A stretch of 56,631 bases of DNA, the filler included, from Jimgerdemannia flammicorona (taxonomy: Eukaryota): NCBI GenBank assembly GCA_003990765.1. It is 3 parts of 3 records of this genome, joined end to end, with 100 filler letters (N's around TTAATTAATTAA, not from the genome) between each part and the next. Parts side by side here need not be neighbours in the genome. Positions count along the whole stretch, not along the records: positions 18,914 to 37,724 come from RBNJ01002108.1; 2 more parts are not named here. One strand, written 5' to 3'. The notes beneath the pieces are model-generated. The model had not been told where the DNA came from. It ran no database searches and saw only the letters and a list, made by a program, of their open reading frames with translations. Shown piece by piece: positions 12,166 to 44,543 of the stretch. How positions within the stretch are numbered: the first letter of the stretch is position 1; every line of letters starts with the position of its first letter. The position numbers were made by a program, and so were the translations under genes.

Positions 12166-15100
12166 TGTGATAGTTGATCTAAATCAGGAATATAAATTAG
12201 AGAAATAGATATTTAATTACAGTACTTGAATCTGATTCCAAAATATAATATAGCCTTATAAATAGCAGTCATATTTTATAAACATTAAAGTTTTTACAAA
12301 TGATAAACTCTTCACAAATATTGAGATTTCACAGATGTTAAAGTTTTGACAATTGTCAAAAATTTAATAGATATCAAGAATTAATATTTATAAAAAGTAA
12401 CTTACAGGAAATATAGTCATAACTTAGTTACCTTATTTAGTAAACTTATATAAATATCTCCAGTATTTAGAATAAATAAAACCTCAGATTGAAATAGTTC
12501 TAAGTAAAGAAAAAGTAAGAGAACTAGTAAGCCTGCAGGCAGATATATAGAACTTACTCACTCTTGTATCCTAAGAACTCTGTAGAGTCAAAGAAGATCA
12601 AGTTTTTAAGATATAGAATTCTGATATACTTATACAGTTATACATCTACTATATTATAACCTGGTATCCATTGACTGGTAATTTAAGATGAATTTCTCAC
12701 TTTCAAGCTAGATAATGAATAACCACACAAATCAAACCAAAATATCTAGATAATATAGATATGAGATCACTAGTATCTATAGATATATCTTAGATAAATC
12801 AATCACTATATTCATTGATGACTTTGAGCAGTATGGACCCTAACAGCAAGATAGCAAGTAGCCCTCATTTCCTTCAGTCTCTAAGAACCAGCAAGAGCAG
12901 AATTTACAACTATAATCTATATAGAAATATTAATAATACCATACTAGCAATATAGAAGACCTGGCTCTGAACTATCTATTATATAGATAAGATCAAGCAA
13001 GCTCTAAAGAATCAGCTCAATATAATATATTAAGAAATGAGTAAGGATTCAAACATATTATATACAAGAATCTAATATTAGATAATCCTTATAGATTATA
13101 CTGCTGCTATTCTAAACTAAGTAGTAGAAGTAATCTTTATAAAAGAAGTCTATCCAGAGATAGTTCTGGTTATCTGCTTATTATCAGTAGTTCTGGATCT
13201 AGCACAAAAGATCACCTATACAAAATAATACTGGATAGCCAGACATCTATAAGACTATATAATAGAAAGAGTCACTGGAGTCAGAATTGAAATACTTAAG
13301 GCAACCAGTGTGATTTCTACCAAAGTGATCAATTGAAACACACCTCAGCCAAAAGCCATATATATATAGAATAATAGAGAAACAGTGACCCTATAGAGTA
13401 ACTTACTAAGAAGTTTGTCAAAATAACTATCCATCTTAGAGATATTGTAAAGAAAATTAGAAAAAGAGATAGCTACCCAGTTCAGAAGTTTGCTACCACC
13501 CCAAACAAGAAAAGAGATACCTGTTATACTTGTAGAGAAGAAGGCCACTACTCACATAAATATATGAGTAAGACCAAGTACAAAGCTTAGTCAAGTAATG
13601 CTATAAGAAATAATGAACAGGCCAATACTATTACCTTTGAAGAAATTAGAGAATCAGATGAAAAAGAATAGAAAGTCTACCCCACTAAGACTATCAAAAA
13701 GAATGTTTACAAGTAACTCTATAAGAGATCTCCAGAGAGACTCAAGATGAGCACTGTGGAAAAATAGATGGAAACTATTACAGAAAGCTAAGATGAAGAA
13801 ATAGAATCAAGATATAGAGCTGAAACAGGCTATTTAAGATATCATTTGAGAAACTACTCCAGCTAGTGAAGGAGAAAAGAAGAAAAAGCTCCACAAGATC
13901 AAGACTTTCAAGTATGATATCTTCAAGAACCTCAGTCAATATAAGGTCAATATAATGTTTGGCCAGTTAGCAGAAATACAAATATTTAGATAGCAAATAA
14001 GATATAGACTTGCTGAGATAACTAAGAAACAAGAATAGAAAATAACTGAGGCCAATAATATTCAAGAAGACTCTGGAGAGAAGAGCAAAAATAATTACAA
14101 GACATCTGCCTCTATACAATGTATCAAATTTAAGATAGAATCTTTGAGGCTATTATTGATACTAGAGCAGGAGAATGCCTTCTCAGCAAGAAAGCAAGAC
14201 TGCCTAGGTTGAGAGGTTGAAGAAGTAACCAAATTAGTATTCATTATAGCAGATAGTATAAGAGACATATCTCTAGGAAAGATCCAAGATATTTCCATCA
14301 AGTTTGGAGGAGCAACCATCTCAGTAGTTATAATTATAACTAATACTACTAACTATAACATTCTTATCAGCAATCAGTGGCTTTATAAAGCTAGAGCAAT
14401 AATTGACCTCAATGCCCAGAAGATGTAGATCATCTACCAAGGTCAGGAGATATGAATTCCCATCAATATCAACAAAGGAGTACTGCCTGAAATAGAGAAA
14501 GAAAGCAAGTAAGAAACCTATATAGTAACTACACAGAAAAAGAAGAAGAAAGGATAGATTAGTGAAGAAGAATAGTATAAAAAGATCATTAAAGAGTATG
14601 TATCACAAGGAGTCTGCCCTCATGGAATCAAGATATACTATATGAAATACATTGATAATTGCTACCAATATATCAGCAGAATTAAGAAAATCTACTAAGA
14701 AAGAAGACAAAAGACTCTTGAAAAATAGGCAAGACAAGAAAAGAAAGAGGAAGAGAATGATAAATCAGTAGCCCTCCTAGAGGACAGTAATAATGAAGAA
14801 GAAATCAAGGTCAAGATTTGGAAAATCCACTCTAATATAGTTCTATCAGAATATAAGTCAGAGAATATAGCTGAAATAGATATTACCACAGTAGAGAAAA
14901 CTGTACTAGAGTCCTAGACAACTACCCTGCTTGTAATGGGTCTGAAAATGACCATTCTAAAGGACCATATTAGGGTCCTCAAAACAAGAAGTAGTCTGGT
15001 TAAGAGTGAGATTACTATTGAAGGAGGAGTCATCAATTTAGACTATATTAGAGAAATACTACTCATTACTAGGAACTACAATCCTATGATTCTGTTTTCA

Positions 15101-15227
15101 ATCAAGAAGAAGGACTAATTGGTTCAAATGTTAACTTCTTAGTTCTTCAGCCAAAGATCATAGAAGTCAAGAAGTTGGAGGAGAAGAAAAGGATTCTGAT
15201 CTACTGAAAGAGAAGTATTTGCTAGCA

Positions 15228-18200: not shown

Positions 18201-18813
18201 CCCAACCCTCCCACAGAGCTCTATCCTCCAACAATGAAGAATTTAACTGCCAATGTCCAGGCCCATCCTCACTTCCCCCAAACCTCCCTCCTCCAAGCAG
18301 CCCCCAGTGATCAGACTATGGACACCAAACTACCTCCAGCACTATCCAGACATCTGCTCCCCAATACTCTGCTGTCAAAACCCAGTCAATTCTAGAACCC
18401 AGCCCTGCTGCCCAATAGGTGTACACCTGCCGATTGTCCCAAAACTGTCTTCCCAAGTCCACTAAAGAACTCAACCTCTCTGTCTCCAACCAGTCACCCA
18501 ACCCATCACTCTCACTCTGCATGTCTCTCTCTCTATCTGTTCTATCTATCTCCTTATCCCGTACTATGTTGAAATCACCCCCCATGCAGTCCAACCCAAC
18601 CTCTCTCAAGACACTGGCCTCTTTCAACCTATGAATCCAATCCACCCTCTCCCCTCTCTCAGCTGGGCAGTAACAAGACCCAACTGTCAATGAGCCCCAT
18701 CTAGATCTCTTCCACACTCCCCACACCACCCAAGACCCCCAATGTCCAATGTCCCCAATGTCCCTCATCCCTTTCTGAATGAGAATACCCACTTTCTCCC
18801 TCCATACCACCCC
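15230..18813 (-). mobile_element. Non-LTR retrotransposon (L1/Tx1-like ORF2: APE endonuclease, RT, C-terminal CCHC), degenerate; 5' end lost in gap
   Basis: GGDFN and SRIDW (endonuclease); LDQEKAYDRV, GVLQGDPLSP and FADD (RT); CKEC..EHWLSEC. AATAAA then a poly(A) tail seen as a T-run at 15230-15259. Stops and frameshifts present. Confidence 0.92.
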
Positions 18814-18913
18814 NNNNNNNNNNNNNNNNNNNNNNNNNNNNNNNNNNNNNNNNNNNNTTAATTAATTAANNNNNNNNNNNNNNNNNNNNNNNNNNNNNNN
18901 NNNNNNNNNNNNN
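18814..18913. other. Assembly gap with artificial TTAATTAATTAA spacer
   Basis: 44 N + TTAATTAATTAA + 44 N = 100 nt. Confidence 0.97.
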
Positions 18914-18960
<47 letters not shown>

Positions 18961-18974
18961 TCTAGATAACTAGA

Positions 18975-19405
18975 TTTAATTTAAGAAATATTTTATTTTA
19001 TCTTGATATTTAATTATAAGAGTACTAATATCTTTGTCTATCTATCACTAGCTTGTAGCTATCTATACTATCTTATAGTCCATTGCTATCTTACAGTCTA
19101 TTGCCATCTTATGATCTATTATTATCTTGTAGTCTATTATCATCTTGCAGTTCTTACAGCTATCTATACCATCCTGCAGTCCTTTTAATTCAAGTAAGAT
19201 TTTATTTTATCTTGATATTTAGTTATAGGAATAACTCTAATATCTTTATCTATCACTAGCTTGCTGCTATCTATGCTATCTTATATTCTATTACTATCAT
19301 ATAGTCTATTGCTATCTTATAGTCCATTGTTATCTTATAGTACTTTGCTATCTTGTAGTTTATTACTATCTTATAGTCCTTGCAGCCATCTATACCATAT
19401 TGTAG
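18975..19405. repeat. Two-level tandem repeat: ~210-bp duplication, each copy holding 18-bp units
   Basis: ttttattttatcttgatattt..tatcactagcttg occurs at ~18990 and ~19200. Each is followed by several ctatcttatagtc(c/t)attg-type 18-mers. Confidence 0.7.
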
Positions 19406-19578
19406 TTTATTTACTAATAGAGATAGTGGAGGCAGTGGAGGATGGGGTAGCAGTATTGATAATAGAGCTCAATCCATTAATATAGGTAGTAGAGGAGACA
19501 GTAGAGGAGATGGTAGAAGAGATAGTAGATTGGTATAGGAGAGAGGTAGTATATTATTATAATAGAATATATATATAT

Positions 19579-20054
19579 TGTAACGTAGTGGATGCTTACT
19601 CTTGAAAGTATGTCAGATTTCTGTATCTTGAAAACTTGACTGTTCTGACTCTCGCAGAGTCTCTTGAAGTTGCAGGGGAGGGTGGGTGAGTTCGAAGTGT
19701 ATCTGCTCACAGGCTTACTAGTTCCTTTGCTATCTCTTTGCTTTGAACTATTTCGATCTGAGGTTTATTCACTCAAAGATACTGGGTTATTTATACAAGT
19801 TTGCTAGCTATGAGAGGGTGGCTAAGTAATAAATGAGTCATTTGGACTTTGTCGAAACATTTGGACAATGTCTAAATACTATACTAAATTGGGACATTCA
19901 ATTTGGATAATGTCTAAAATTTAGACAATGTCTAAGAATTTTGACAATATCGAAATCAGCGACTGCTAACTATAAGGCTATACTACTTTGGGAATGGGTG
20001 CGATCAAGTGTCTATTCCCTATTTCCTTCTTCCAAATTTAGCTGTACCATCACA
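19579..20054 (-). repeat. 3' LTR of family A element
   Basis: Direct repeat of 25835-26310 with ~22 mismatches by manual count. Confidence 0.95.
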
Positions 20055-20133
20055 ACTTCCTCCTGAATAGATGGTCTCGTCCCTGAGGCATCTATTCAAA
20101 CTCCCAGGCTTCAACTGTCTATATGGTCTTGTA

Positions 20134-20553
20134 CTATGCAATTTGCTGCATGACTGTTTCCCAATGATGTCTTCTCACTTTCTCGAAGTCAGTAGGGGTT
20201 ACTTCTCTCAGATGGTCTATTGCTGGTTCATCTTCTCGGAATAACTTGTGGATCCTTTTGGCGATAGTGATCTGTGAGTAGGAGAGTTGACACTCAGCAA
20301 TCCAGTCCTCCTTGGTCTTTGCTGGATCCTGATTGAGCACCTGTCCAAGCTTGAAGTACTCTTGGAATTCTGCATGATACTGATAGGCTCTAAAGTGCGA
20401 GATCCGAGAGAGATGGGTCTGTACAATACTCTGAATATCCTCATAGTATGGCTCTATGGTTGGAGGCTCAGTGGTGTGCCATTGTCTATCAATGGCTCTT
20501 TGGGCAGTACTAGTGATCTTGAGTGCCATTGCAGTACTTTTGTTACTGGCCAT
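20134..20553 (-). CDS. Uninterrupted 139-aa accessory ORF between integrase and PPT; function unknown
   Basis: ATG overlaps the pol end (pol TAA at 20543-20545). No TM or signal segment. Ungapped similarity to the family B LTR ORF. Confidence 0.75.
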   Translation of the reverse strand: MASNKSTAMALKITSTAQRAIDRQWHTTEPPTIEPYYEDIQSIVQTHLSRISHFRAYQYHAEFQEYFKLGQVLNQDPAKTKEDWIAECQLSYSQITIAKRIHKLFREDEPAIDHLREVTPTDFEKVRRHHWETVMQQIA

Positions 20554-23500
20554 GATATTTCTTGAGTCGGTTTCGGTGAATGGTGGTGGGGATTATTGTG
20601 CCTGAGGGTTTCCATAGCCAAAAGGTGGTCCCTTTTATATCTTGCACAAGGTAAGGTCCTTCCCACTTGGGCTCCAGTTTTCATGACCATGAAGCTTCTA
20701 CCATGTTCGGATATACTAGGACTTTGTCTCCTATCTTGATAATCTCCAAGGGCTTGTGGGTCTTTTCCGCATTCCTCCGTTATAGTATCTGTGCCTTGGT
20801 TATGTAATCCTCAGCCTTCTTCCTGATTTGGTGTAGTCTCCGTATTTCTATATCCACATGTTTCCATACAGCATCTCTATTGGATGATAGGGTTTCTTGA
20901 GAACATTCTTCTCCAAACAGCATTTCTTGAGGGGTAAAGTGGGTACTTTGTGATCGGATATCCCAGAGAGCAGATAATGCTATTGGCAGATAGTGATCCC
21001 AGTTCTCATAGTTATCACAGATCTTGGTGATAACATTCTTGAGGGTTTTGTTGGTCCTTTCTACTTGTCCGTTTCCTTGAGGGTGATAGGCTGTGGTCCG
21101 AATGTGCTGGATCTTGTATTTCTTGGAGAGAACTTCGAAGAACTGGTTCATGAATTCTGTTCCTCTATCTGTAGTTACTTATGTTAGGGTCTTGAACCGA
21201 CAGATGATTTCCTTATGGAAGAAATCGGCGATTGACTATGCATTGGCTTCCTTGAGGGGTCCTGCTTCTATCCACTTCATAAAAAGGTCTACAATGACAA
21301 TGATATATTGGTTACCAGTCAGGGTCAAGGGTAGAGGGCTGATTACATCCATTGCTATATGGGCAAATGGTACTGGTTCTATGTGTGCTGATCCTGGAGC
21401 TTGATTCCGTTAGTCTTGTTTCTGTTTCTGGTATTTGTTGTATGTTTTGATGAATTGTCTGATATCTTCCTCTATCCCTGGCCACTATATTATTCTTCTT
21501 GCCTTATTGTATGTATTCGTTCCTCCTAGATGGCCAAGTTCATGTACTGATTTCATCGCTTGCTCCTTCTTGTGTTCTGGTATGACTAGTAGTTTTCCTT
21601 TCTTCAGTGTTTCTCCATTGGTTTTGAATTGTTTCCATGTCCTGTTGATAATTGTTTGTGTCCATTCTTCCAGATGTTGGGGCATCTTTCGCTGTCCTAG
21701 GTATGTGATAATTCCATAGTAGAGCTCCTTATTCATGATTGATCTGTTGGTTGGAGGTAGTTCAAGGTGTCCATGAGAGAGTATCTGCATTGGAATTTGT
21801 TCTTCTAGGGCGGTATACAATGGTTATATCATAGGCTTGTAACTTCATTATCCATTTGGCATAGATTCCTTTGGGTTGTCCAGTTGTCAGTAGCCAGGTG
21901 AGAGCTGAGTGGTCCATCTGGATGGTGAAGTGTCTTCCAGCCAAGTAGTAGTGGAACTTTTCTATGGCCCAGATGACTGTGAGGCATTCCAACTTGTAGG
22001 ACTCGTATTCTTTTTCAGCTCCTCGGGTTCTGCAGCTAAGATATGCAATAACATACTCCTTTTTGTCTTCTTTTTGAGCTAGGACTGCTCCTAGTCCCTG
22101 TGCACTTGCATCCATCTGAAGGATAAATTCTTGGGTCCAATTGGGTCGTCTGAGGATAGGTGCCTGGGTCAGTCTGACCTTGAGTTCATCAAATGCTTTC
22201 TGTTGTCTGCTAGTCCACTGGAACTTGGTATCCTTCTTATTGAGTTCGTAGATTGGACCTGCGATGTTGGAGAATCCTCTAATGAATCTGCAATAGTAGG
22301 AGGCAAGTCCCATGAAGGCTTGGGCTTCTGTAACAGTGGTGGGTCTTGGGTATGCTGCCACTGCTTGTATCTTGAGGGGGTCTGTGTGTGTTCCGTCTCG
22401 ATTGATAATATGGCCAAGATAGGAGATCTCGATTTCTGCAAACTTGCACTTCTTGGGTTTGATATAGAGGCCATGTTGTCTTAGTCTCTCCATTATCTAC
22501 TGTATGTGCTGCAGATGTTCCTCAGGTGTCTTGCAGTAGGTGATTACGTTGTCAACATAGACCATCATCCATCTTCCCATGTCATAGTGGAAGATTTTGT
22601 TCATTATATGCTGGAAGCTTGCTGGTGCATTGCACATTCCGAATGGCATTTGTAGGTAGATGTAGGTTCCGTCTGGGGTGATGAAGGCTGACTTTTCACT
22701 TGCCATTTCTGTGAGTCTGATTTGGTAAAATTCTGAATATAAGTCCAAGGTGCTATAGTACTGTGCTTCATCTCCCAGTATTATAAAGATGTCACTGATG
22801 AGTGGCAGTGGTTGGCAATCCTTCTTGATAACTGCATTGAGCTTTCTGTAGTCGACACAGAGCCTTGGGGCAAATTCTCCAGGTTTGCTTCCTTTTTTCG
22901 GAGCTAGTACAACTGGTGAAGACCAGGAGCTACTGGCTTCTTTGATGATGCCAGCTTCTTCTATCTGCTTGATTTCTTCTCTGAGCCATTCTCGGTAGGC
23001 TGGTGGGACAGGTCTTGCTTTCTGGTAAATTGGTTCAGTGTCTCCAGTATCTATCTCGTGATAGTAGTATGGGGTCTTTCCCTTGATATCCTTGAAATCT
23101 GTGGCAAAGACATCCTCGAATTCGTGGAGTATTTTCTTGAGTTCCTCCTTGAGTGGGAATTCATCTCCAATTGTGTAACTGTGCTTGCTCATGTTTTCCT
23201 CCTTCTTATGCTCGAGTTCAGTGATCTTGGTGCTGGCGAATACTCCTCTTCCTGTGGATCTGAATCCTTTCTTTCCTCTTTTCATTTCCTCCAGATTCTT
23301 GACTTCTATGATCCTTGGCTGTATGATCGGGAAGATCAACATCTGTGCCAATCGGTCCTTCTTCTTGACTGGGAATGGAATTGTAGGATTGTGGTTCCTA
23401 GCAATGAGTAGAATTTCTCCAGTATAGTCTGAATCGATGACTCCTCCTTCAATTGTGATTTTGCTTCTAGCCAGGCTGCTTCTTGTCTTGAGAATCCCGA

Positions 23501-25720
23501 CATGATCCTTTAGGATGGTCATCTCTAGTCTGGTTGTGAGTAGGGTGGTTGTCTGGGGTTCGAGTACAGTTTCTTCTACTGTAGCAATGTCCATTCCAGC
23601 TGTATTTTCTGACTTGTATTCTGGTAAGACTGCATCAGGGTGGATCTTTTGAATCTTGACCTTGATTTCTTCTTTGTCATCACTGTCCTTCAGGAGAGCT
23701 GGTGGTTCATCATCTTCCTCCTTCTCTTCTTCCCTGATCTGTTCTTCGAGAGCTTTCTGCCTTCTTTCTGGTGGATCTTCCTGATTCCGATGGTGCACTG
23801 GTAGCAATCGTTGACATGCTCCATACAGTACATCTTGATTCCATGAGGGCAGACTCCTTGTGGTGCATAGCCTTCTGCCATCTTCTTGCACCATTCTTCT
23901 TCACTCATCCATCCAACTTTCTTCTTCTTTGGAGTAGTCACCATATAAGCTTCCTCTTGCTTGCTCTCTTCTTCCTCCATATTGGGCAGGACTCCTTTGT
24001 TGACATTGATGGGAATTTGTATCTTCTGTCCCCGGTAGGTGATTTGCATCTTCTGGGCATTGAGATCGATTACTGCCTTGGCTTTGTGAAGCCATTGATT
24101 GCCGATGAGGATGTCATAGTTGGTGGTATTGGTTATGATTACATCTACTGGGATTGTTGCTCCTCCAATCTTGATGGAAACATCTCGGATCTTTTTCAGA
24201 GGTGTGGCTCTTGTGCCATTGGCTGTGACGAATACTAGCTTAGTTGCTTCTTCCACATCCCAACCTAGGCGGTCTGCTGCTTTCTTGCTGAGGAGACATC
24301 CTCCTGCTCCTGTATCAATGATGGCTTCAAAGATTCTATCTTTGATTTAGCATGTTGCATAAGCAGAGGTTTTGTGATTGTCCTCACTTTCTTCTCCTGA
24401 GTCCTCTTGAACATTGTTGGCCTCAGTTATCTTCCAGCCTTGCTCCTTGGTGGTTTCTGCAAGTCCAAATCTCATTTGCTGTCTGAAAGTAGGTATTTCT
24501 GTGAGCTGACCAAAGATTGCATAGACCTTTTGTTGACTGAGATCCTTGAAGATATCATACTTGAAGGTCTTGGTCTTGCGAAGCTTCTTTTCTTTTTCTC
24601 CTTCACTGGCTGGAGTGGTTCCTCAGATGATATCTTGAACTGCTTGCTCAAGCTCTATGTCTTGATCCATTTCTTCGGCTTGGCTTTCTGTGGCTATTTC
24701 CATCTGTCTTTCCACTGGGTTCTTCTTGGGTCTTTCTGGTGGTCACTTGTAAGGTTCTTTGTGAACATCCTTCTTGGTGGTCTGAGCAGGATAGGCCTCC
24801 CATTCCTCTTCATCGGAATCTCCAATTTCCTCAAAGGTAATTGTATTGGCCTGCTCCTTGTTTCGTGTAGCATTGCTTGGTTGAGCCTTGTGCTTGGTTT
24901 CGCTCATGCATTCGTAGGAGTAGTGGCCTTCTTCTCCACAGCTGTAGCAGGTACCTTTCTTCTTGTCTGAGGTGGCAGCAAACTTCTGAACAGGGTGGCG
25001 ATCTCTTCCTCAGATTTCCTTTACCACATCTCCCAGATGGGCAGTCATTTCAGCAAACCTTTTGGCGAGTTCCTCCATAGGGTCACTGTTCTTTTGCTGC
25101 TCTGTAGCTTTTGGCTGAGGTGTGTTTTGATTGATCATTGTGATAGGGATCACACTGGTTGCCTTGGGTGCCTCAATTCTGACTCCTGTAACTCTCTCCA
25201 TTGTATGGTCTTGTGGGTGTCTGGCTATCCACAATCGCTGAGCATAGGTGACCTTCTGTGGCAGATCCAGAATCACTGGTGATGAGCAGATGGCTATGGC
25301 TATTTCTGGATGGACTCCTTTCATGAAGGTTGCTTCGGCTACTTGATCTTGGATAGCAGCAGCATAATCTGCAAGGATTATCTGATATCAAATTCTGGTA
25401 TAGAATGTGTTTGGATCCTCACTCATTCCTTGGTACATTGTGTTGAGCTGATCCTTCAGGGCTTGCTTGATCTCATCTGTATAATATGTGTTTCGGAGCC
25501 AGGTCTTCTGTACCATCAGTATGGCATCGGCATCATTTCCTGCATGGGTTGCACCTGTGAATGCTGCTCTGGCAGAACCTCGTAGGCTGAAGGGCATGAG
25601 GGCTACTTGCTGTACTGCTGTCAGGGTCCTTACAGTGGCATACTGCTCAAAATCATCAATGAAGGTGATGATTGATTCATCTGAGGTATATCCATGAAAT
25701 ACTGGTGGTCTCATATCCAT
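20543..25720 (-). pseudogene. gag-pol of family A (gag, CCHC knuckle, aspartic protease, Cys/His module, dUTPase, RT, RNase H, integrase with GPY/F)
   Basis: MDMRPPVFHG start; CYSCGEEGHYSYEC; IIDTGAGG; MPFGMCNAPASFQ; YVDN (mutated YxDD); QMDASAQGLGAVL; TAYHPQGNGQVERTN; KWEGPY. Contains premature stops and frameshifts. Confidence 0.93.
23250..23665 (-). other. dut: dUTPase domain between protease and RT (family A)
   Basis: All five trimeric dUTPase motifs: AGMD, RSSLA, GVIDSDYTGEI, DRLAQ, RGKKGFRSTG. Confidence 0.95.
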
Positions 25721-25834
25721 CTTGTCTAGGTATTGGGGCTCAGTTTGTATGGTTGTTCGGGTAGTGTCAGTTGTTTGTTGTTCAGCTTGAAAGTGAGGGA
25801 TTCGTCTTGAATCACCAGCTAATGGGCACCAAGT

Positions 25835-26310
25835 TGTAATGTAGCAGATGCTTACTCTTGAAAGTATGTCAGATTTCTGTATCTTGAAAACTTGACTGTT
25901 CTGACTCATGCAGAGTCTCTTGAAGTTGCAGGGGAGGGTGGGTGAGTTTGAAGTGTATCTGCCCACAGGCTTACTAGTTCCTTTGCTATCTCTTTGCTTT
26001 GAACTATTTCAATCTGAGGTTTATTCACTCGAAGATACTGGATTATTTATACAAGTTTGCTAGCTATGAGAGGGTGGCTAAGTAATAAATGAGTCATTTG
26101 GACTTTGTCGAAACATTTGGACAATGTCTAAATGCTATACTAAATCAGGACATTCCATTTGGATAATGTCTAAAATTTAGACAATGTCTAAGAATTTAGA
26201 CAATGTCGAAATCGGCGACTGCTAACTATAAGGCTATACTACTTTGGGAATAGGTGCAATCAAATGTCTATTCCCTATTTCCTTCTTCCAAATTTAGCTA
26301 TACTATCACA
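25835..26310 (-). repeat. 5' LTR of family A element
   Basis: TG..CA ends, 476 bp, followed on the minus strand by ACT + TGGTGCCCATTAGCTGG. Confidence 0.95.
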
Positions 26311-28779
26311 ATATATATAATATCTGCTCTATATTAAGATATATCACAATAAAATTAATATTATATATATTATATCTAGAACAGTACTATAATATATTTA
26401 TAGACTCTAGAATTATTCTAGATATATACCAGATACTATACTAAATAGTTCAGATATGTATTATATAAATTACCAGATTATTGTATAGAGTTACTAGATA
26501 TTATAGGATATAAATTGATATCTGAGTATTATTTTATATCTAGATATACTCAGATTAGTCAGATATCTCTTAATATTTTTATAATGCTATTGGGATAATA
26601 ACTACTGATATAAATACTAACTCACATTTATATCTAACTACTTCCACTATAATAAAGAAATAGGAGATACAACCTATACCTCCAGATAACCCTCAAGATA
26701 GAACTAATGACCTCATTTCTTAAGTATAAGTAATATAAAGAATAACTACCAGCTTACTATAATCCTGCAATATATAGTTCCATAATCTACTGAAGATATA
26801 CTGATAGCAAATTTGAATAATATACCCCTTCTCTGCTCTCCAATCTATACTCAGCATATGAGACAGATGATATATACCATTCTGTAGGATGATCACTTCA
26901 TTCTAACATATGTACTACTATATATATAAATAAATAGAGAGATATAATCCAAGAACCACTCTTTCTAGACAACTACTTTATCAGAGATAATATCATTAAT
27001 AGTGACCTTATTAAATAATATTCAGACAGTATTGAAATCTATAAATAGCTTAGCAGTCATTAGTATAGTTATTAGTTTAGTATAATATAACTATATTCTA
27101 ACTTATCAGTCAGTAGATCTCTTGATATATTAGTTCACACTTTGTATAACATAATTATATTCTGATATAATAAGTACTAAAGTACTATATCCATATTTAG
27201 TCTAGTCTAGATATATAACCTCTCATTAGTATAAATACCCCCTCTCTCAGATCTTAGAAACTCAGACAGAAATTGGGATAAGAATCAGATAAATACTTTT
27301 TCATATAAATATTCCTTTATACACTACTCTTAGTATTAGCTAATAGCAATATTATAAATAGTCACAAGTGTTTTGACAGCAATTGATATAGAGCTGAAGA
27401 AATGATTGAATTTCAATTACTGGATCTTTGATACTATATATAGAATATTGTTGTAAGTAGCCCCCAGAATAAATCTATTTAATAATCTACAAATCACTCT
27501 TAAGTAAACCTATATTATATTAGATTCTGCTCCTAACTAGATCTAGAAATTTTCTAATTTAGTATTATCTATAACAATATACCAATTCAACTAAGCTGGT
27601 TTTAGTTTTTTCTTTCTGAAATAAAGAAAATCCTGAACATCCAGAACAAGTCTGATAAAGAACTTTGATTAAAATATCAATTCAATCATAAAATCAATAA
27701 GTATAGAGAATATACTCTATATATATAAAATTGATCTTAATCTTAAGAAATTAATCTTCTAGAATATCTAAAACTTTCTGAAAACCCCTTCCAGAACTAT
27801 ATAATGGTACCTTTATAAAGTATTCTCTTACAACTTTGTAGTAGTGGTCTACAATCTAATTTTACTTTAAGATGTTTCCTCACTTAGCTATAATTCTCAA
27901 CAGAAATTCCTATAAGTTGATATAAAGCCCAATTACTGAACTGGAATTTATCCCAAACTATCTCAATCTGAAGTAAATTGAATTTAATATATAAGAACAA
28001 TTAGACCTCTATATCTGTAATAAGTAGGACAAACTTCATATATACAAAGAAGTACTCCAATTAAATAAACAGATAGATAAAACCCTATTTATCAAACTTC
28101 TTACTCTATATACTACAAGTTAAGATGAAAAAGGTCTTATATGTAGAAGTCTTCTTTATCCTTCTCAATAAGAGTTTTATAAGCTCTACAAATCTAAACA
28201 ACCTAGGACAACCAGCAGCTATATTTCTAGCCCTAGTTTCTCACAAAGCCCAAGCCTCTATAGTCAAGTAGCTCAACTATACTGACTACTACCATACCAG
28301 AACTAAGACTGCTCTATACTACTATTTTCAGAATTGCAAGACTCACTATATTCATAAAGAAGAAGATAGAGAAACTCTTTATAACAATCAGACTCTGAGT
28401 CAGAAGTAGGCCTAGTTAGAACTTTATCTGAATCTGAAACCAAACCAGAAATAAATCCCAATCTCAAAAGAGCTTTTGATTTAAGCCCATCTGAACTCTG
28501 GTATATAATTGATATCATTTACTTTGATACTAACAAATCCAGCTCTATCAAGACTAAAGTGAAGAAGAGGAGAAGTATCTTAATGAATTTGATCTCAGAT
28601 ATACTACCAAAGGAGATATCTATCTCAGGATAAAATATATCCACAGAATAACAAATATTTATTTATTAGGCCCTTATATAGTTACTCTAGTAACTTATAT
28701 AAACTCAAGAAATACCATCATACTTCACACTAATATCTCAAATTATATCAGTAACTCCATTATCAGTAGTTCAACTATC

Positions 28780-31700
28780 TCCTATAAACAATATAGCAAA
28801 TTAACAAATTTAAGACCTTATAGCCCAGATAGGTATAATAGTAGCAACTATTACTATCTTAGCCAAACAGACTCAGCCAACTAAAAGTGAGAGTCTATCT
28901 ATTTTTAATAGTACTATACAAGAAGTCCAAAGCTTTATTAGTATAGTAAATATTAATTTCAAAGCCAATCAATAGACTAATGAGCAAGTTGCAAACTATA
29001 TCTTAATGAACAACTATTGAACAACCTTTTGTCACTACTATGGCTAATGTTTATATTGTGGAATGTGGACTTTGGAGAGAGAAGCAAACTGTTTATTGCT
29101 AATTCTTATGCACTTTTACACGTCACAATTAGTGACATTTACATGATGATGTAGTCAAGGAAGACTGTGCCACCATATATCAAGTTGTAACCTACATATT
29201 TCAATACTTCTGCTCAACAAGATATGCAAATTTCCAAACTGCAATACTAAGCTATAACCACTGCAAATCTTGCTGCAATATTCAGACCGCTATCTAGAAA
29301 CCAAAAAACATCTGAATTGCCTGCTTAAAGCTTGAAAAATAGGTTGAAAAGTAGAGATGTGAACATTCATAGATAAGCAATGTTGGTAGAAATCTGCAAT
29401 ATAGTGATAGGGAAAAGAAATGCATTGAATATGAAATAGATTTCGAAATTGATCTGCCAAAATACTTCTGTATAGCTCACTATTGTTGTTGTTTTTTATT
29501 GCTGGCATATAGTTTTTGCTGCCATAACTCCCATTCCCTTTATGCATAGATCAAATCTTGTCTTTGGGAGGGCTTTCATTAATGAATCTGCTATCATACT
29601 CTCCATTGGAGTGTATTCCAGGTGTATAGTGTTGTTTTCCATGTATTCCCATATGAAATAATGCTGTATATCGATGTGTTGCATTCTAGCGTGGTGTATA
29701 GGATTCTTTGCCAAAGCAATCATTAATTGGTTATCTTGCTGGAGTAGTGTAGAGTGCTGTTGCTTGTATCCCAGCTCCTTTAACAGTTCTCGAAGCCAGA
29801 TAGCCTCCTTTGTTGCCATTGACAATGCTTGATATTCTGCTTGTATAGAGGATGTTGCTACTGAAGGTTGCTTACATGTTTGCCATGAAATGGCTCCATT
29901 GTTTACTTTAAAGATGTATCCAGTTATAGACCTTCTGTCATCTAAGTCGCTGGTCCAATTGGCATCACAAGAACCGAATAGGCATATAGTACTCCTGCTT
30001 TGCCCATTATCACCACCCAAACTGAGTGTATAGTCCATGGTTCCTTTGATGTATCTGAAAATTCACTTAATTGCCATCCAATGGCTATTGTTATAGCATG
30101 AAGAATACTGCGCCACTTTGTTTACCACAAAAGAGATATCAGGTCTCATCCCTTGCATAAGATACATGAGGGATCCCATGGCTTATCAATAGGGGATATC
30201 ATTTCCCTCAGACATAGTGTCAGACTTCTTTAGTTTCATGAATGTTTCTATAGGTGTCCTGACTGGTTTGTATTCACTCATCCCAAATTGCTTGAGAATA
30301 TTTCAAATATATGTAGCTTGCGTTAGGTGTATAGTGCACTCATGCCTATTATGTGTAATTGATATTCCAAGGAGATAGGATGCTTCGCCTAAGTCCGTCA
30401 TTTTGAATTCCTGGCATAGTATAGCCTTTACATCGTTGATTTCACTTGCCATTCCAACTAAAATAATATTGTCAACCCAAATTCCCAGATATACCATTCC
30501 TGAGGATGTATGTCAGGTATATATGTATGGATCGGCTTCACAATGCTTGAATCCAGTGTCTAGGAGATATCCATCGAACTTTCGATTCCACAATCTTGCC
30601 GCTTGCTTGATTCTGTAGAGCCCTTTGCATAATTTACATATGAGCTCATTTCTGTCATTGTTGTATAGTTCGTATCCTTGTGGTTGTCATACGTATAACT
30701 CCATATCTACGTCACCGTTCAAGAATGCTGTCTTTACGTCCATTTGGTATATTTCATAGTCATACTTGGCTCTGATTGCAAGAAGTATTCTAAGCGAAGT
30801 CAACTTAAATACTGGAGAAAATGTCTCATCATAGTCTATGCTGTGGCCTTACGAGTACTCCTTTGCTACAAATTGAGCCTTATACCGTTCTATGTTGCCA
30901 TTAGCCTTATGCTTGATCTTGTAGACCCACTTTGATCCTATAGCTTGTCGCTCTGCTGGAAGGCTTACTAGATCCCAAGTGTTGTTTTCGATGAGTGAAC
31001 TGTACTCCTTGTCTATAGCCCTTCTCCACTCCTTATCATTTGAGTGAATGGCTTCATCGTAGTTCTCTGGTTCGCCGGTTGTTGCAATATATGCACATTC
31101 ATAAGAATTGGTGTAGTTCACATGATGTTCACTATTGTTGCTATGACGGGATGTCTTAGGCAGGTCCCAATAACCTCCTAAATCCATATCTAGAACTCTG
31201 AATTTGTACTTTTGTTTGCCCTTCAGAGAGGTATCCTCTTCGTCATCCTCATCCATAATTTCTATTATCCTTAGTTCTTGCAACTTCATTGCCGTTTGAA
31301 TGGGTTGTGCTTTCACTGGCTGTACCATCAAATTCACTGTCAGATTCACCATCAGATTCAAGATAGGAATTTCCACATAAATTTCCTGCTTAGTCTCCTT
31401 GAACTGTACATCACATGAAATGATCATATGTCATTTCTGTAGGTTCCAAAGTCTGTATCTCGCTCCATTGTATTCAAGGAATATGTATATGCTTATCTGC
31501 CTTAGGTTCGAACTTGCCTCGGTTGCCACCTTTGTGCCTTGCTTCCAAATATGCGTAAGTGTGAAATGTCAGGCTTGGATCCATTCTATAATTCCTCAGG
31601 GGTAAGATTGCTGTCGTTCCTGGATTGCTTGCCAGGATCCTTGCTTAGAGCTCGAGAGAAACAATGATTTCAAATATATGCTGCCATATTCACCACTTCC

Positions 31701-34306
31701 ACCTAAAAGGACTTCGGTAAGCTGGCCGTATTCATCATCATTCTAGCCATTTCCACTATCATTCGATTGAATCGTTCTGCCATGCTCTTTTGCTGAGATG
31801 TATAAGGGGCTGTCATAGAGTGCTGTATACCATTCTTCTTCAAGAAGTATCTGAAACCTTTATTGACGTATTCTTTGCCATTATCTGAGCATAGGGTTCG
31901 TATTCTATGTTCCGTCTCATTCTCTACGGCTGCCTTGAATTCCCAGAATTTGTCAAATACCTCATTTTTCCCTGCAATGAGATATATGTGGACTTTGCAT
32001 ATATAATCATCAATGAATGTAATAAAATACTTCTTCCTGAAGTGTGATGCTGTTCACATGGGGCCACAAATATCCATATGAATCAAATCGAGAATGTCAG
32101 CTGCTCACTTCGTTCATTCCTGAAAAGGTTGCCAGGAAGCCTTGTTTGCCATGCATCTATCGCAAAAGAAATCCGGTGGCATATAGTCTGGTAAACCATA
32201 CACGGACTTGTTCCTTACCATCTGTTCAAGACTCATTTTACCAATATATCCTAAGCATTCATACATTATATGCCAGAAATCCTCTCCTGTCATAGTTGTA
32301 GAATATGCGGATATAGTGCCACTCAGCATGCCATTGATTGCATATAGATTCCCCTTTTTCAATGCGTACATTAACTCCTTATTGTTCTTCAGATTGATTA
32401 TTGTTACACCATTTGGACATATATTTACTCCTCTGTCCCTATGAGCCATCATCTGGCCTATCGAGAAGAGGTTCTTGCCTATATCTGGAGTATATAATAT
32501 GTCCACAAAGGTGCCTGAAGGTTCATCAATGTTTCCATGAAGATGTATGCCTATGTTGCCTTTCTCTTAAGTGTAAATGACATTATTGTAACCTAGCTTG
32601 ATAGGTATGGAATGCTCGAACTTCTCGTACATAGAGAACCACTCCCAGTGAGCCATCATATACTGTGTTACACCTGAATCCATGAGCCAGACCTCTTCGC
32701 TGCATGCATAAGTGCTGTTTGGCATATAGCTTACATTTGCACTGGTGCTGACGTTGACGTCACCATTTTTTGCTGTCTGAAAAGTGTTTCCTTTATCAGG
32801 ATTTGTAGATGTCGAATTGCCACCGCATTTGCAACTGGCATTGTTTTTCGAATTATCTCCTGCTTCTGCATATAGATAGGTTGCTGCTTCTGTAAAGAAT
32901 AGACCTCCCCCATTACCACCACTGTCATTATTGGCATCTACCATATTTGCCTGCCATTGTCCACCTTTCTCCTTTTTCTTGCGGTTGCAGTCCTTTTCAT
33001 GATGTCTGAGCTTGTCACAATAGAAGCATTTCCCAGCAAATTTCTAACTATCGCATTGCTAGCTCTTGCCTCAGCCTTTATTTGACTTGCCTTTGCTGTT
33101 GCCTCGTCCACATGCTCTGCCATAAAAGGCTTTTTCCTTGCCATCATTGTCTTCATTGGCATTCAGCCTTGTTTCCTTGTTTAATAGGCTCATGATAACA
33201 TGCTTGTAATCTGATAATTTGCTGGACTCTCTCATAGCTGCAACGACAATGTTGTACACCTCTGGAAGGCCTTGTGTAAGGGTCAGGACCTTGTTTTCAT
33301 CTCTAATGGCATCCTCTGGCATAGTTGTAAGGGAATTCACTTGATTCACTAGCTCGTCGACTCGGTTGACATATTCCCGGATATTCTCCATTGACTTCAT
33401 TCGAAGATTGAATAATTGTGTCTTCAAGTGGAATCTGTTCGAAGCGAATGCTTGTTGGTGGTGATTTCACAAGATGTCCCAGGCTTTGTTCGCCATCGTA
33501 GCATTGATTACGAGCTTTATTTGCGTATTCAAAAGGGTAAACATAATCTCCCTTAGTGCCTTATAATCATTAGTAGCATTGTACCCCATAATCTGTACCT
33601 GTGGCTTCCAATAGTCCCCCAAACTACATTCTTTAAGGAGATTCTTCATATGATACACCCATATAGTGTAATCTGTACTGTCAAAGACAGGAATCATCCT
33701 TTTTACTATGTTTATAGTTGTAGGTGCCACTATCGTTGTTGTTGTCATCATCATAATAGGGGCTGCCATACCCATACTGGTACCCGAGCCTGTATTACTG
33801 CTGGGGCTTAGTGCACTGCTAGCACTGCTTATATTCATGTATAGCATAGTGTAGCATATGTGTTAGAGAGTGTATTATAGCCACTAAGCAGGGCTCATAA
33901 CCTGTTGTGGAATGTGGACTTTAGAGAGAGAAGCAAACTTTTTATTGCTAATTCTTATATGCTTTTATGTGTTGCAATTAGTGATATTTATATGATGATG
34001 TAGTCAAGGAAGGCTGCGCCACCATATATCAAGTTGTAACCTATATATTTCAATAGTTTACTAAGTTGTTACATTCTTTTGAGGACCTGCTGAAGAATAG
34101 TGGTAAACCCTTCCTGAAAAATCTCTCACATAAGATACCCAACCTATAGTTGTTGCTCAAAATGTATTAAATAATATCTCTAGATATAGAAACCACCCTG
34201 CAGCTCCTGGGCTCAAATAATTCATAATTGTCTAATATTATAGTAAGACTCTAATTGCTGATTTCTGAGTCAAACTCTATTAACCTCAAATTTGATATAC
34301 ATATAT
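28780..34306 (+). mobile_element. Old Gypsy-like gag relic interrupted by the Copia element
   Basis: Before the Copia TSD: eroded (P)xFxG...V..FI......F.AN.(W) pattern. After it: gga cct gct gaa gaa tag tgg = GPAEE(W)W, a gag motif. Heavily mutated; boundaries approximate. Confidence 0.45.
29054..34055 (-). mobile_element. Full-length Ty1/Copia LTR retrotransposon, inactivated
   Basis: 153-bp LTRs at 29054-29206 and 33903-34055; 5-bp TSD GTTTA on both sides; PBS GGTTATGAGCCC (33891-33902); PPT TTGAGCAGAAG. Motifs: CCHC CFYCDKLRHHEKDC, WLMDSG, DLIHMDICGP, KWVYKIK, WVDNIIL, SCDANW. Order PR-IN-RT-RH. Confidence 0.96.
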
Positions 34307-37300
34307 TATAATGGTGACCCCAGAATGATGACATCAGCACAGGAGACAGCCTTTCCTTACAAGCCACCAGATCAGAGCACAAGAAGATCATATAGCATAT
34401 GAGATGAGCAATGATAACCAACTGTGAGTCATTGTGACCACAGCACAAGTATCCTGAAGAATATAAAAGAAGGATCAAGGAACTGCAGTAGCAGCAACTA
34501 ACAAGAACCACCAATCCCAAAATAGTCAAAGACTTACCATAAACAAAATGCCTACTGCCCACCAAACCTCAAGGTCAAGGAATTACCAAGATATCTCAGT
34601 CAAGGAAAGGATGTTCCAAGACATCAGAAGAGCTATGAGGACCCACTCAAGAAGGACTTCTAGTATTAATCTGGGTACTACAGACTCTTATTACTTCATT
34701 CTCTACTGTCATGAAATGGAAACAAGGATCACTATTGCTACCGAATGCCTCCAAATGTGGCAGGAGTATGAAATAGGAAACCTCCTCTGCTAGGAGTTCC
34801 CACAGGCCAGTACCCAAGAGCTATAAGATGTAACTTTCATGGATATATATGAAACAAGGACAGCTAAGAAGATCCATCAGATCTTCAGGCATGCACTATG
34901 GTCGATCCCCAACTTGGAGTATGTTAGGGTCTCAGACTTCAGAGACCTATCATTCCACCATATCAATGCACTAGAAGCCAGGGTGGCTACAGAAGTCCAG
35001 TCCACTATTACCCTCAACAGTGAAGAAGTAGAAGACTTCTGGCATCCTATCCTTCAGGACAATCCAGACCAATTCCTGCAAGGATTGGTCTCAGTATTCC
35101 AAGGCCCAAGCATCCAGGTTAGACACCCCACATTTGTTCCCTATTTTGTGGAAGAGAACCTCATAGACAGGAGAGCTCCAGATCTTGTTCCCGATTTTCC
35201 CACCACAGCTGAACGTGATGACATCATCCCACATGACATCAATATATGTGAGACATATAACAAAGTATGTGAAAATGATGAATTCGCAGACCTCATCTCC
35301 TTCAGTGATGATGATGATGAGGAAGAAGCTCCCATGGTCCTGAACTTTCTGCTTTAAGTTCTTTGTTACACTGGATAATACCAGCACTGGTATTCTGAGG
35401 TGATGTGATATTGTTCCAGTACTGGCATTTTGATGTGATACTAAATAATGCCAGCATCCTGAACCTATACAACCATCAGTACTGACTCTGGAACTTAGTA
35501 GTTTTAGTTATTGGAATTTATATTTAGCTTTATATCTTAGCAACCATTGAATTATATTTTGTATAAATACCCCTCTTATTTTCTCTGAAATAAAGTCAGT
35601 TCCAGTTTCACTTATATACACTTCCTTGCAAGCAATCTAAGAGATAACAAGACAGTTAAAGATAAGGAGTTTGAGAACTATAAGACCTTGGGAAGGCACT
35701 CCAATAAGAACTTGCTTATAACAACTTGAGTTAGTCTAAGAGATATACCTTGAATAGAATCTGGCATATTTGAAGGACTCAGCAACCACTACATGACAAC
35801 TTGGTACCCATTGGCTGGTGATTCAAGATGAATCCCTCACTTTCAAGCTGAAAAACGAACAACCCCCACAATAACTACCCTGACTACAAGAGTCACCCCT
35901 GCAAGAATTTAAGACAAAATGGAAATACATCTCTCTATATTCTATGGATATACTACTGAAGAGTCAATCCTGATCTTCATTGAAGACTTTGAACAATTCA
36001 CTGCCATATGAGCCCTTGGTATGGATGCTCAATTGGCCCTTCTACTAGTCAGCCTCAGAGGACCTGCTAGAGATAAGTTTAATGCAGCCACTATTGCTGG
36101 TGCTGATGCAGTCAAACTTACCAACATGAAGGCCTTCCTCAGAACAATATATTATACCAAAGAGATCAGGCAAGCTCTCAAGTATCAACTCAATACTATC
36201 TGCCAGGGACTTAGTGAAGATCCCAACTTATTCTATACCTGAATCTGCCACCAGATTGTCTTGGCTGGCTATGATGATGCCCTCAAGGAACAAATAGTAG
36301 ATTCAACCTTCCTCAAAGGAGTTCACCCTGAAATTGCCCTAGCAATCTGGTCTACCCTAGCTGCACTGACCCTTGATCAGAAAGTGGTCTTTGCATAGAG
36401 ATATTGGACTGCCAGACACCCTGCCAAACACTCAATGGAGAAAATAACTGGCATCAAGATGGAGCCATCAAAGCCAACTAGTATCTTACCTGCCACAGTT
36501 GTAAACAGATAACCAACCCCACCTACCCCCAAGATAGCCAAAGCTGACCCAGTGGAAGAACTTGCCAAGCAGTTCACTGAGATGACTGCACACCTCGGTG
36601 ATGTTGTTAGAGAAGTCTGAAATGCCAACAGGAGACCAGTGCAGAGATTTGCAGCTGCTATAGAAGAATGCAATATCACATACTTCAGATATGGAGAAGA
36701 AGGCCACTATGCAAAGAGTTGCATGACTGAAACGAGACACAAAGCCCAACTAAGCAATTCTAGCAGAACCAGAGAACAAACCAATGCAGTAGTCATCAAG
36801 GAGATTGGTGACACTGATGATGAAGAATACTATGAAGAGCTCGAATTCTACCCTGCTACTGAAGGTACCAGAACCCAGTCTAAGCCCTATGACAAGAAGA
36901 GCAACAGTAAGCCAGTTGGAAGACCAAAGAAGACCCCAGCTATCACTATTCAAAGTAAGACCCAACCCAAGGAGATTGATCAAGACATAGAGTTAGATGA
37001 AGCTGCCTGCCAAATTATCGAAGACACTACCCCAGTCTCAGGAGAAAGCAAGAGCAAGAAGGAACAGAAGCTGCATAAGACCAAGATCCACCAGTATGAC
37101 ATCTATAAGGACCTTAAGGAACAGAAGGTCAATGCCACTTTTGGGCAGCTAGTTGAAGTCCCTGCCTTCAGATAGCAGTTGAGAGTAGGACTTGCAACTA
37201 CCACCAAAAATCAAGAGTATAAGATTGTAGAAGCTCACAATGCACAGGAAGAATCCAAGAACTCAGGTGAAGAATCCGAAGACCAGCACAAGACATCAGC

Positions 37301-37724
37301 CTATACCCTATGTCAGATTGAAGATTGTATCTTTGATGCCATCATTGATACTAGTGCTGGAGGATGCCTCATGAGCAAGAAGACAATTGACTGCCTAGGA
37401 TAGGACATTGAAGAGTCCACCAAAATGGTCTATGTTATAGCAGATGATACACGAGCTACCCCCCTTGGCAAAATCTGAGAAGTCCCCATCAAGATAGGAG
37501 GAGCTACCATCTCAGTAGATATGATTGTTACAAGTACCACCAACTATGACATCCTCATTGGCAACTAATGCCTTCACAAGGCCAAGGCCATCATTGATCT
37601 CAATGCCCAGAAGATATAGATCAACTACAGAGGAAGAAAGGTACAAGTCTCTATCAATGTCCACAAAGGAGTCCTACCAGACATGGAGGAAGGAGATGAA
37701 GAAGACACAGAGGTCTTCATGCAC
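34307..37724 (+). mobile_element. Ty3/Gypsy family B copy 1: ~1.49-kb 5' LTR (34307-35798), PBS, gag, protease; truncated by gap
   Basis: Homology to copy 2 starts exactly at T(G>A)TAAT and the LTR ends ..catgaca followed by acttggtaccc. gag is homologous to family A; IIDTSAGG protease motif. Confidence 0.88.
34548..35357 (+). pseudogene. ~270-codon accessory ORF inside family B LTR, homolog of the family A 139-aa ORF
   Basis: One frame with two stops (TAG 34791, TAA 34824). The first stop is Gln in copy 2. Motif AKKIHQIFR..IPNLEYVRVSDFRDLSFHH; acidic C-terminus. Confidence 0.72.
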
Positions 37725-37824
37725 NNNNNNNNNNNNNNNNNNNNNNNNNNNNNNNNNNNNNNNNNNNNTTAATTAATTAANNNNNNNNNNNNNNNNNNNN
37801 NNNNNNNNNNNNNNNNNNNNNNNN
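37725..37824. other. Assembly gap with artificial TTAATTAATTAA spacer
   Basis: 44 N + TTAATTAATTAA + 44 N. Confidence 0.97.
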
Positions 37825-43790: not shown

Positions 43791-44443
43791 TATCTCTTGG
43801 ATAATTAGAGAAACTAAGAACTTAGTATATAATATATACTAAGAAACTTTTAGTATGAGAAAGTATTTGCTTGAAAGTAGTTATAGCAGCAGTATTCTTC
43901 TTATCAACTATGGTTATAAGGAACTTGTTCTTTGCTATATACAGACTGCATTTGCTTTAGAATTTAGATTCAATAGGTTTACTTAAGTCTTTGGGATTTA
44001 TATACCAGTCTCAGTTCTGGTAGAAGTTAGCTAGGCTTTTGGAGTTTAGTTAGAAATATTAGAGTCACTTAGATATTATTACTAAGACTCAGGGGAATAG
44101 ATGTATAGAAGAGACTTAATTTTTATATCAAGAACTAAACTAAAACTATCTTTATTTTAGATAGAAACTAGGAGATATTTATATAAGTTGGTCTACAATT
44201 TCTGACTAAGTATAAGTAACTAATTTGGTAACTATGGTGAGATTTGTGATCAAGATCTCTATTTCTAGATAATGATCAGTACTAGTTGCTATGATACCAA
44301 TTGCTAGAGATAAACTGGATATTATTTATTTACATTATTTATATCATTTGCTACATTCATCATTCATATATCATATATCATATATCATGCTCAATTATGA
44401 CATTATTACTAGATCACATAATTACTCATTATTATATATTATG

Positions 44444-44543
<100 letters not shown>

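Follow-up and report, generated by a model that had tools for sequence, protein, structure and literature searches.

Next to the dUTPase of Ty3/gypsy long terminal repeat (LTR) retrotransposons from Jimgerdemannia flammicorona lies a short Cys/His module that matches no catalogued protein family. We describe it here from a stretch of 56,631 nucleotides of assembly GCA_003990765.1 (hereafter the window), in which three parts of the genome are joined end to end with 100 filler letters between each part and the next, positions 18,914 to 37,724 coming from record RBNJ01002108.1. The module adds an uncatalogued accessory domain to elements of a familiar kind and does not amount to a new type of system. 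P numbers below denote database proteins and L numbers metagenome contig loci.

Four copies of the module, each beside a dUTPase

The intact copy belongs to the element that we call A. Its 56-residue segment (23762-23929, minus strand) translates to KKKKVGWMSEEEWCKKMAEGYAPQGVCPHGIKMYCMEHVNDCYQCTIGIRKIHQKE; the module of this element reads WCKKMAEGYAPQGVCPHGIKMYCMEHVNDCYQC, identical to the version in an earlier note on this DNA, with C27, H29, C42 and C45 as candidate ligands. The core, from the W to the last C, occupies 23795-23893 and falls inside the interval 23785-23905, where the earlier note had placed a Cys/His module of about 45 residues; the observation is confirmed. The 56-residue segment was used as a tblastn query against the window to find further copies. 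Four module copies were present in total, each adjoining a dUTPase within a Ty3/gypsy LTR retrotransposon, and a tblastn search of the window with the dUTPase domain recovered exactly four dUTPases, one next to each module.

Element A is a dUTPase-bearing Ty3/gypsy LTR retrotransposon of 6.5 kb on the minus strand, bounded by a 5′ LTR (25834-26133) and a 3′ LTR (19578-19877) that share 97% identity. Read 5′ to 3′ along that strand, it carries a canonical gag CCHC zinc knuckle separate from the module (24743-25009; PF00098, E 1.9e-06), an aspartic protease (PR) directly upstream of the module and in the same frame (24017-24346; PF13975, E 1.6e-12, with DTGAG at 24302-24316), the module, a trimeric-type dUTPase about 39 codons downstream of it (23235-23645; PF00692, E 4.4e-25), reverse transcriptase (RT), the start of which was placed at 22497-22910 by Pfam and tblastn, RNase H and remnants of integrase. 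Its Pfam set comprises PF00098, PF13975, PF00692, PF00078 and PF17919 together with a weak rve match. The full domain set is found in its relative L005, a 6.5-kb metagenome contig with a single open frame of 1281 residues running through gag-CCHC, PR, module, dUTPase, RT and RNase H. As judged from this uninterrupted frame, L005 provides the best evidence that the module would belong to a working polyprotein.

In the window copy of element A, a single-base indel (23760-23775) shifts the frame between module and dUTPase. Contigs of related elements from three public sequencing runs contain one extra base near 23767, and in the relatives P0002, P0015 and L005 the frame reads straight through from module to dUTPase. 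A programmed frameshift was therefore rejected, and we attribute the shift to a single-base lesion of this copy.

Between integrase and the 3′ LTR, element A and L005 also share a conserved additional frame, some 150-166 residues long (window 20134-20592, minus strand; L005 224-724, minus strand). Both frames begin SPPPFTETDSR… and have no Pfam match; they may represent an 'additional ORF' (open reading frame) of this element family.

The three further copies announced by the earlier note were all recovered by tblastn. In element B, the module (39042-39209, minus strand; E 7.9e-14; core 39075-39173) has C and H residues decayed to Y, and an in-frame stop (38991-38993) separates it from the dUTPase found by tblastn and Pfam at 38508-38918 (minus strand). 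The second is an eroded A-like copy on the plus strand (14552-14695, E 2.9e-13), with PR upstream (14134-14452) and dUTPase downstream (14825-15223).

The third, in the chromovirus-like element C, is heavily decayed (49083-49226, minus strand, with the W at 49188-49190). By tblastn alone the match was weak (49131-49226, minus strand, E 0.28). The copy was secured by P0005, an intact database relative of which 289 residues align to element C with 64% identity (E 5.7e-124), since this alignment runs through the nucleocapsid knuckle, the dUTPase and the module. Here the dUTPase lies upstream, on the N-terminal side of the module (49233-49544, minus strand; PF00692, E 4.6e-21 on the read-through), and a decayed protease active-site motif, DNSATG, lies downstream (48852-48869, minus strand). 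The decayed read-through also gave a chromodomain match (PF00385) of 18.1 bits, below the cutoff of 25.1, and a match to SH3_Tf2-1 of 39.4 bits, above the cutoff. L005 has a GPY-type integrase C-terminus, and Pfam found no chromodomain in it.

Decay of the window copies

The Y residues in the decayed copies had been read as former C or H residues altered by single C>T or G>A steps. This interpretation is borne out by P0015, an intact relative of element B (82% identity over 514 residues), which reads CPHGTRMYCSEHLNDCWSC where B reads CPYDTRMYYSEHLNDYWFC and has C or H wherever the B motif has Y. According to the codon table, all five differences between the two are single C>T or G>A steps. P0015 also carries Q at the position of the B stop. 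Together, the stop and the C/H to Y changes point to C>T and G>A decay of copy B.

The G+C content of element C is 31-34%, versus 43-45% for element A. Over the window from 44000 to 50000, which holds element C and its surroundings, G+C is 29-34% with many stops, compared with 41-45% for A and B. For the region of element C, heavy transition-type decay, either like repeat-induced point mutation or driven by methylation, is consistent with this composition.

A second, partial B-like copy, made of gag knuckle and protease, lies at 36621-37724 (plus strand), inverted relative to element B and facing it. It is cut off by two runs of 44 N (37725-37824); a similar pair of runs occupies 18814-18913.

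Conservation points to four candidate ligands

Conservation was assessed on 15 aligned module members sharing 29-73% identity. C27, P28, M33 and C45 were invariant, while P23, H29 and C42 were present in at least 90% of the members. The two members without H29 or C42 have Y at that position, one transition away from H or C. The family-wide pattern of candidate ligands is C-x-H-x12-C-x2-C, four residues in all, and the six potential zinc ligands counted in the earlier note were thus too many. In particular, the middle YC-x-EH pair (C35 and H38) is replaced by S and M in the long, stop-free proteins P0017, P0020 and P0021, which makes a predicted one-zinc site with four ligands the parsimonious reading. 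The Cys/His pattern is kept across lineages at 29-50% identity. In an alignment of five proteins with the domain order termed class II below, the module stands out as a conserved island amid unalignable linkers.

Comparison of element A with L005 gave a ratio of non-synonymous to synonymous proportions (pN/pS) of 0.46 for the module, 0.17 for PR, 0.28 for dUTPase and 0.20 for RT, values which are rough because synonymous sites are saturated between the two elements. The module thus appears to be under constraint, weaker than that on the enzymes.

A possible half-module duplication in the gag of class II relatives, 'W..QKI.EQG….CPH..WCF' (residues 146-170 in both P0005 and P0017), which looks like the first half of the module, was rejected, as it scored -0.5 to -0.7 bits against the module hidden Markov model (HMM).

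The module matches no known family and is predicted to fold

No Pfam family reached its gathering cutoff on any of the 15 members, and none matched more than two of them at E≤10. A sequence-profile search of the PDB returned nothing below E 0.24; the best match, at that value, was to a copper-chaperone M-x-C-x2-C stretch and was treated as chance. A full-text literature search, the scope of which left the 2008 Phanerochaete paper outside, returned descriptions of fungal dUTPase-bearing elements with no mention of the motif. The description of the module as unrecognised has therefore held.

The same is true of its distinction from the gag knuckle and the integrase HHCC motif. The module differs in spacing from the C-x2-C-x4-H-x4-C of the gag CCHC knuckle (PF00098), which matched none of the 15 members at E≤10, and the elements' own CCHC knuckles lie elsewhere (residues 206-222 in L005). 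Similarly, the integrase H2C2/HHCC families (PF17921, PF09337), marked by H…H…C-x2-C at the N-terminus of integrase, matched none of the 15 members, and the H2C2 domain of L005 sits in its integrase open frame, far downstream of the module. RING and zinc-ribbon families (PF13920, PF23413, PF07295), which have a cross-brace of eight ligands or two C-x2-C knuckles, do not fit either: the module has only four conserved candidate ligands and gave sub-threshold matches in at most two of the 15 members.

AlphaFold2, run with the 15-sequence alignment, produced a confident model: mean predicted local distance difference test (pLDDT) 85.7, predicted template-modelling score (pTM) 0.65, with 38 of the 56 residues at or above 90 and the five models ranging from 82 to 86. 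The predicted fold consists of a helix (10-18), a hairpin (25-26/32-33), a second helix (36-41) and a last helix (43-55). In the model, the turn of the hairpin holds C27 and H29, and C42 and C45 lie where the last helix begins. We take this hairpin-plus-helix arrangement to be the generic treble-clef layout. Fold searches with the 56-residue model, the small size of which leaves them uninformative on whether the fold is new or known, gave a best E of 2.1 with Foldseek against the PDB, a best E of 3.5 against BFVD and a best Z of 3.0 in a wide VIA-align search, and a second VIA look found nothing at Z≥2; no zinc finger scored above Z 3.

Relatives of the module and their association with dUTPase

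When the 56-residue segment was compared by phmmer with 1.84 billion representative proteins, 13 of them matched at E≤1e-3. Five of these (P0008, P0010, P0012, P0013 and P0014) were dropped as repeat proteins matching in several low-complexity stretches; the other eight are true relatives, none of which shows a pol context free of dUTPase. No cellular or viral dUTPase with the module was found among these representatives. With a profile of ten module sequences, 15 proteins were recovered from a collection of 5.8 billion, and 13 of them carried a precomputed PF00692 annotation. A degenerate DNA motif scan of metagenome contigs yielded 13 loci. The HMM confirmed the module in two of them (E 6.9e-30 and 2.7e-25); the remaining 11 lacked it and were set aside as chance matches.

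Other searches added no member. A word-indexed search with the module region of P0001, covering longer proteins, gave no candidate; with the window dUTPase it gave 316 candidates among longer proteins, none of which scored. Searches with the module alignment returned nine pattern matches among metagenome contigs and nine among viral contigs, none confirmed. The ESM Atlas gave no usable match (best score 0.80), and no RNA holder was listed for the element.

In all, 22 module instances were assembled, many of them fragments: the four of the window, 16 database proteins and two metagenome loci. In 18 of these 22 sampled instances, counted from the module side, a dUTPase lies within a few tens of residues of the module. 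P0003 (82 residues) and P0022 (broken off within the module) do not extend far enough to tell; P0007 and L002 show no dUTPase within about 45-110 flanking residues. The claim that the module always travels with the dUTPase was thus too strong as worded, while the association itself stands.

The domain order is permuted between lineages

Two architectures could be resolved. Class I has the order PR, module, acidic linker, dUTPase and RT, and includes elements A and B, the eroded A-like copy, P0002, P0015 and L005, as well as P0022 as far as it extends. Class II has gag knuckle, dUTPase, short linker, module, acidic linker, PR and RT, and includes element C, P0004, P0005, P0006, P0009 and P0016 to P0021. 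In the five aligned class II proteins, the dUTPase ends in GFGST and is followed by a variable stretch of 10-20 residues, the module, an acidic linker of variable length and the DSG motif of the protease. When P0015 and P0017 were compared by BLAST, their dUTPases were 38% identical and their modules 35% identical (E 1e-14), the modules lying on opposite sides of the dUTPases; the order of the domains has thus been permuted between the classes. This opposite placement had escaped the earlier note. The linkage of module and dUTPase persists in both lineages despite the permuted order.

L002, P0003 and P0007 form a third group, to which P0011 probably belongs as well. The open frames of L002 and P0007 have the module close to their C-terminus; a D-D-x-W-C-x-C-x-E-C motif comes about 40 residues after it, and thereafter the frame or protein ends. 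Such a C-terminal position in an open frame is normally occupied by the nucleocapsid knuckle. The 3′ end of L002 contains a second unit, 49% identical to the N-terminus of P0011, where the unit leads into module and dUTPase. Judging from this resemblance, this lineage may carry two modules, the L002 contig ending at the second unit. In P0011, a GW-rich motif precedes the module and no protease is present in the 33 visible upstream residues.

The GW…W.RDENI motif just upstream of the module was observed at 175-262 (plus strand) of L002, in which it occurs twice, and at residues 9-29 of P0011. It matches the Pfam family SCNM1_acidic with 33 bits in L002 (cutoff 27) and weakly in P0011 (E 0.16).

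A possible zinc-dependent anchor for the dUTPase

The proposal that we favor, to which we give about an even chance, is that the module is a one-zinc finger with a basic C-terminal helix that would fasten the dUTPase to nucleic acid or the replication complex. On this view, a true domain of about 45-50 residues, able to fold by itself, is part of the polyprotein of fungal-type dUTPase-carrying Ty3/gypsy elements. One zinc ion would be bound through four residues in a treble-clef-like arrangement: the C and H of the CPH(G) hairpin turn and the two C of the C-x2-C that opens the last helix. The latter, in which K, R and Q abound, would bind nucleic acid or a member of the replication complex; the domain itself is set between flexible, mostly acidic linkers. 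Provided that module and dUTPase stay attached after protease processing, as we infer, such an anchor would hold the enzyme at the reverse-transcription complex in the particle, so that dUTP would be removed at the site of cDNA synthesis. In Mason-Pfizer monkey virus, the zinc knuckles of the nucleocapsid play such a part for the dUTPase to which they are fused, and the extra zinc knuckle that follows the dUTPase of rotifer Juno elements is a second precedent. That L002 and P0007 have the module where a nucleocapsid knuckle would sit points to a nucleic-acid or replication-complex role as well. The proposal also builds on the results above: the conservation of the module between variable linkers, its pN/pS below 1, its confident predicted fold and its linkage to dUTPase, which outlasts the change of domain order.

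Several observations weigh against this proposal. The module is less constrained than the enzymes around it, and the clustering of its four putative ligands is read from predicted secondary structure. As sampled, the family is small and rich in fragments. The side of the dUTPase on which the module lies is not constant, unlike what would be expected of a pure accessory of this enzyme, and P0007 and L002 suggest that its function may not depend on dUTPase at all. Finally, in both resolved architectures the module stands between PR and dUTPase, a position that also fits a spacer.

A structural spacer or hinge is indeed the main rival, which we nevertheless consider unlikely. dUTPases are obligate trimers and retroviral proteases obligate dimers; the module and its acidic linkers could decouple the two enzymes, or time the activation or cleavage of the protease, with no ligand beyond a structural zinc. 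A hinge would explain why the module stays between dUTPase and protease when their order is swapped, and the variable acidic linkers do flank it on the side facing the next domain. This role would not, however, need invariant Cys, near-invariant His and a conserved basic helix, nor does it fit the third group, where P0011 has no protease in its visible upstream residues and the module of L002 and P0007 lies near the end of the frame with neither protease nor dUTPase in view. The tight linkage to dUTPase could alternatively reflect a regulatory or docking domain that was acquired in one two-domain cassette with the enzyme and packs on the trimer, for instance near its C-terminal arm, where it would modulate activity or assembly. 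The pair is found both in the chromovirus-like lineage and in a lineage in which no chromodomain was found, as a mobile cassette would be. Against this stand the position of the module, N-terminal to the enzyme in one class and C-terminal in the other, over linkers of 10-50 residues, and the lack of the module on any cellular or viral dUTPase among the representatives searched; we regard docking as quite unlikely.

The module might also be a very divergent member of a known zinc-finger superfamily (RING-like, zinc-ribbon or another treble clef) that goes unrecognised at the sequence level only. Sub-threshold matches to zf_RING_Vps8_fungal (E 0.0023), to zf-C5HC2 (E 0.023), to DUF4379, a 'probable treble clef' (E 0.033), and to zf-C3HC4_3 and the DUF1451 zinc ribbon (two of 15 members each) point this way, as does the predicted layout, which is generic for treble clefs. 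These matches designate different families and none reaches a gathering score, while the fold searches returned nothing above Z 3.0 or below E 2.1, weak evidence for a model of 56 residues; we see little likelihood in this explanation. Lastly, the module could be a chance-conserved linker or a decaying remnant without function, as its weaker constraint between A and L005 and the decay of several copies might suggest. This appears hardly credible: the Cys/His pattern survives at levels of identity where the adjacent linkers can no longer be aligned, the AlphaFold2 prediction is confident, and the module is kept in long intact open frames such as those of L005, P0015, P0017 and P0021.

Comparison with known systems

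In treble-clef zinc fingers, a hairpin turn and the first turn of a helix contribute two ligands each, the first pair usually being C-x2-C. The predicted secondary structure of the module is consistent with such a placement; its first pair, by contrast, is C-x-H, and no structural match was obtained.

The betaretroviral gag-pro layout parallels the class II order of nucleocapsid knuckle, dUTPase and protease. Mason-Pfizer monkey virus has a homotrimeric NC-dUTPase fusion protein (PMC1802613), in which a retroelement dUTPase is joined on one chain, via flexible linkers, to a small zinc-binding module, as would be the case here with zinc binding being predicted. The viral zinc modules are canonical CCHC knuckles N-terminal to the enzyme, whereas the module described here is a separate C-x-H…C-x2-C domain present besides the gag CCHC knuckle, and follows the dUTPase in class II but precedes it in class I.

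The Juno LTR retrotransposons of bdelloid rotifers, compared here by their description, have 'an extra Zn knuckle' after a dUTPase placed between PR and RT (PMC5408684). They resemble the present elements in having an extra zinc motif adjoining the dUTPase inside the pol of a Ty3/gypsy-like element, and differ in their animal host and in that the motif is described as a knuckle. Closer in kind are the dUTPase-containing Ty3/gypsy elements of basidiomycetes, from Phanerochaete and from Postia (PosPlaTy3-3/-4/-5), which have the dUTPase either between PR and RT, like elements A and B, or close to the N-terminal end of Pol, like element C (PMC2864245). Unlike in our elements, the zinc motifs described in the sections of that paper used here are the CCHC and HHCC motifs, with no module beside the dUTPase (PMC2864245).

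Other features of the window

An open frame at 29290-30330 (minus strand) reads …ITGYIFKVNNGAISWQTCKQPSVATSSIQAEYQALS… and resembles the RNase H end of a Ty1/copia element; neither module nor dUTPase was found beside it. Another, at 18316-18861 (minus strand), contains …GGDFNIVRDKEIDR… and abuts the N runs; it resembles an endonuclease/exonuclease/phosphatase domain of a non-LTR retrotransposon. A host gene bordering the transposon cluster may account for a stretch of about 50% G+C at 50985-52209 (plus strand), which contains long open frames rich in proline and serine.

Implications for retroelement dUTPases

The module would add a new family to the catalogue of retroelement domains and should improve the annotation of fungal transposons. 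That two lineages have it in a permuted order neatly illustrates how modules are shuffled in pol, while the general picture of LTR retrotransposons is unchanged. A bolder reading, which we would not bet on, is that it represents a new zinc-finger fold forming a mobile cassette with the dUTPase, which chromoviral and non-chromoviral gypsy lineages would have exchanged in either order, and that in a third lineage a duplicate of the module took the place of the nucleocapsid where ORF1 ends. If this were true, retroelements would have recruited a nucleic-acid-binding adaptor independently of the classical CCHC knuckle. dUTPases are widespread in retroelements, but little is understood of how they reach the place where reverse transcription occurs; a conserved domain that accompanies the enzyme provides a concrete handle on this question.

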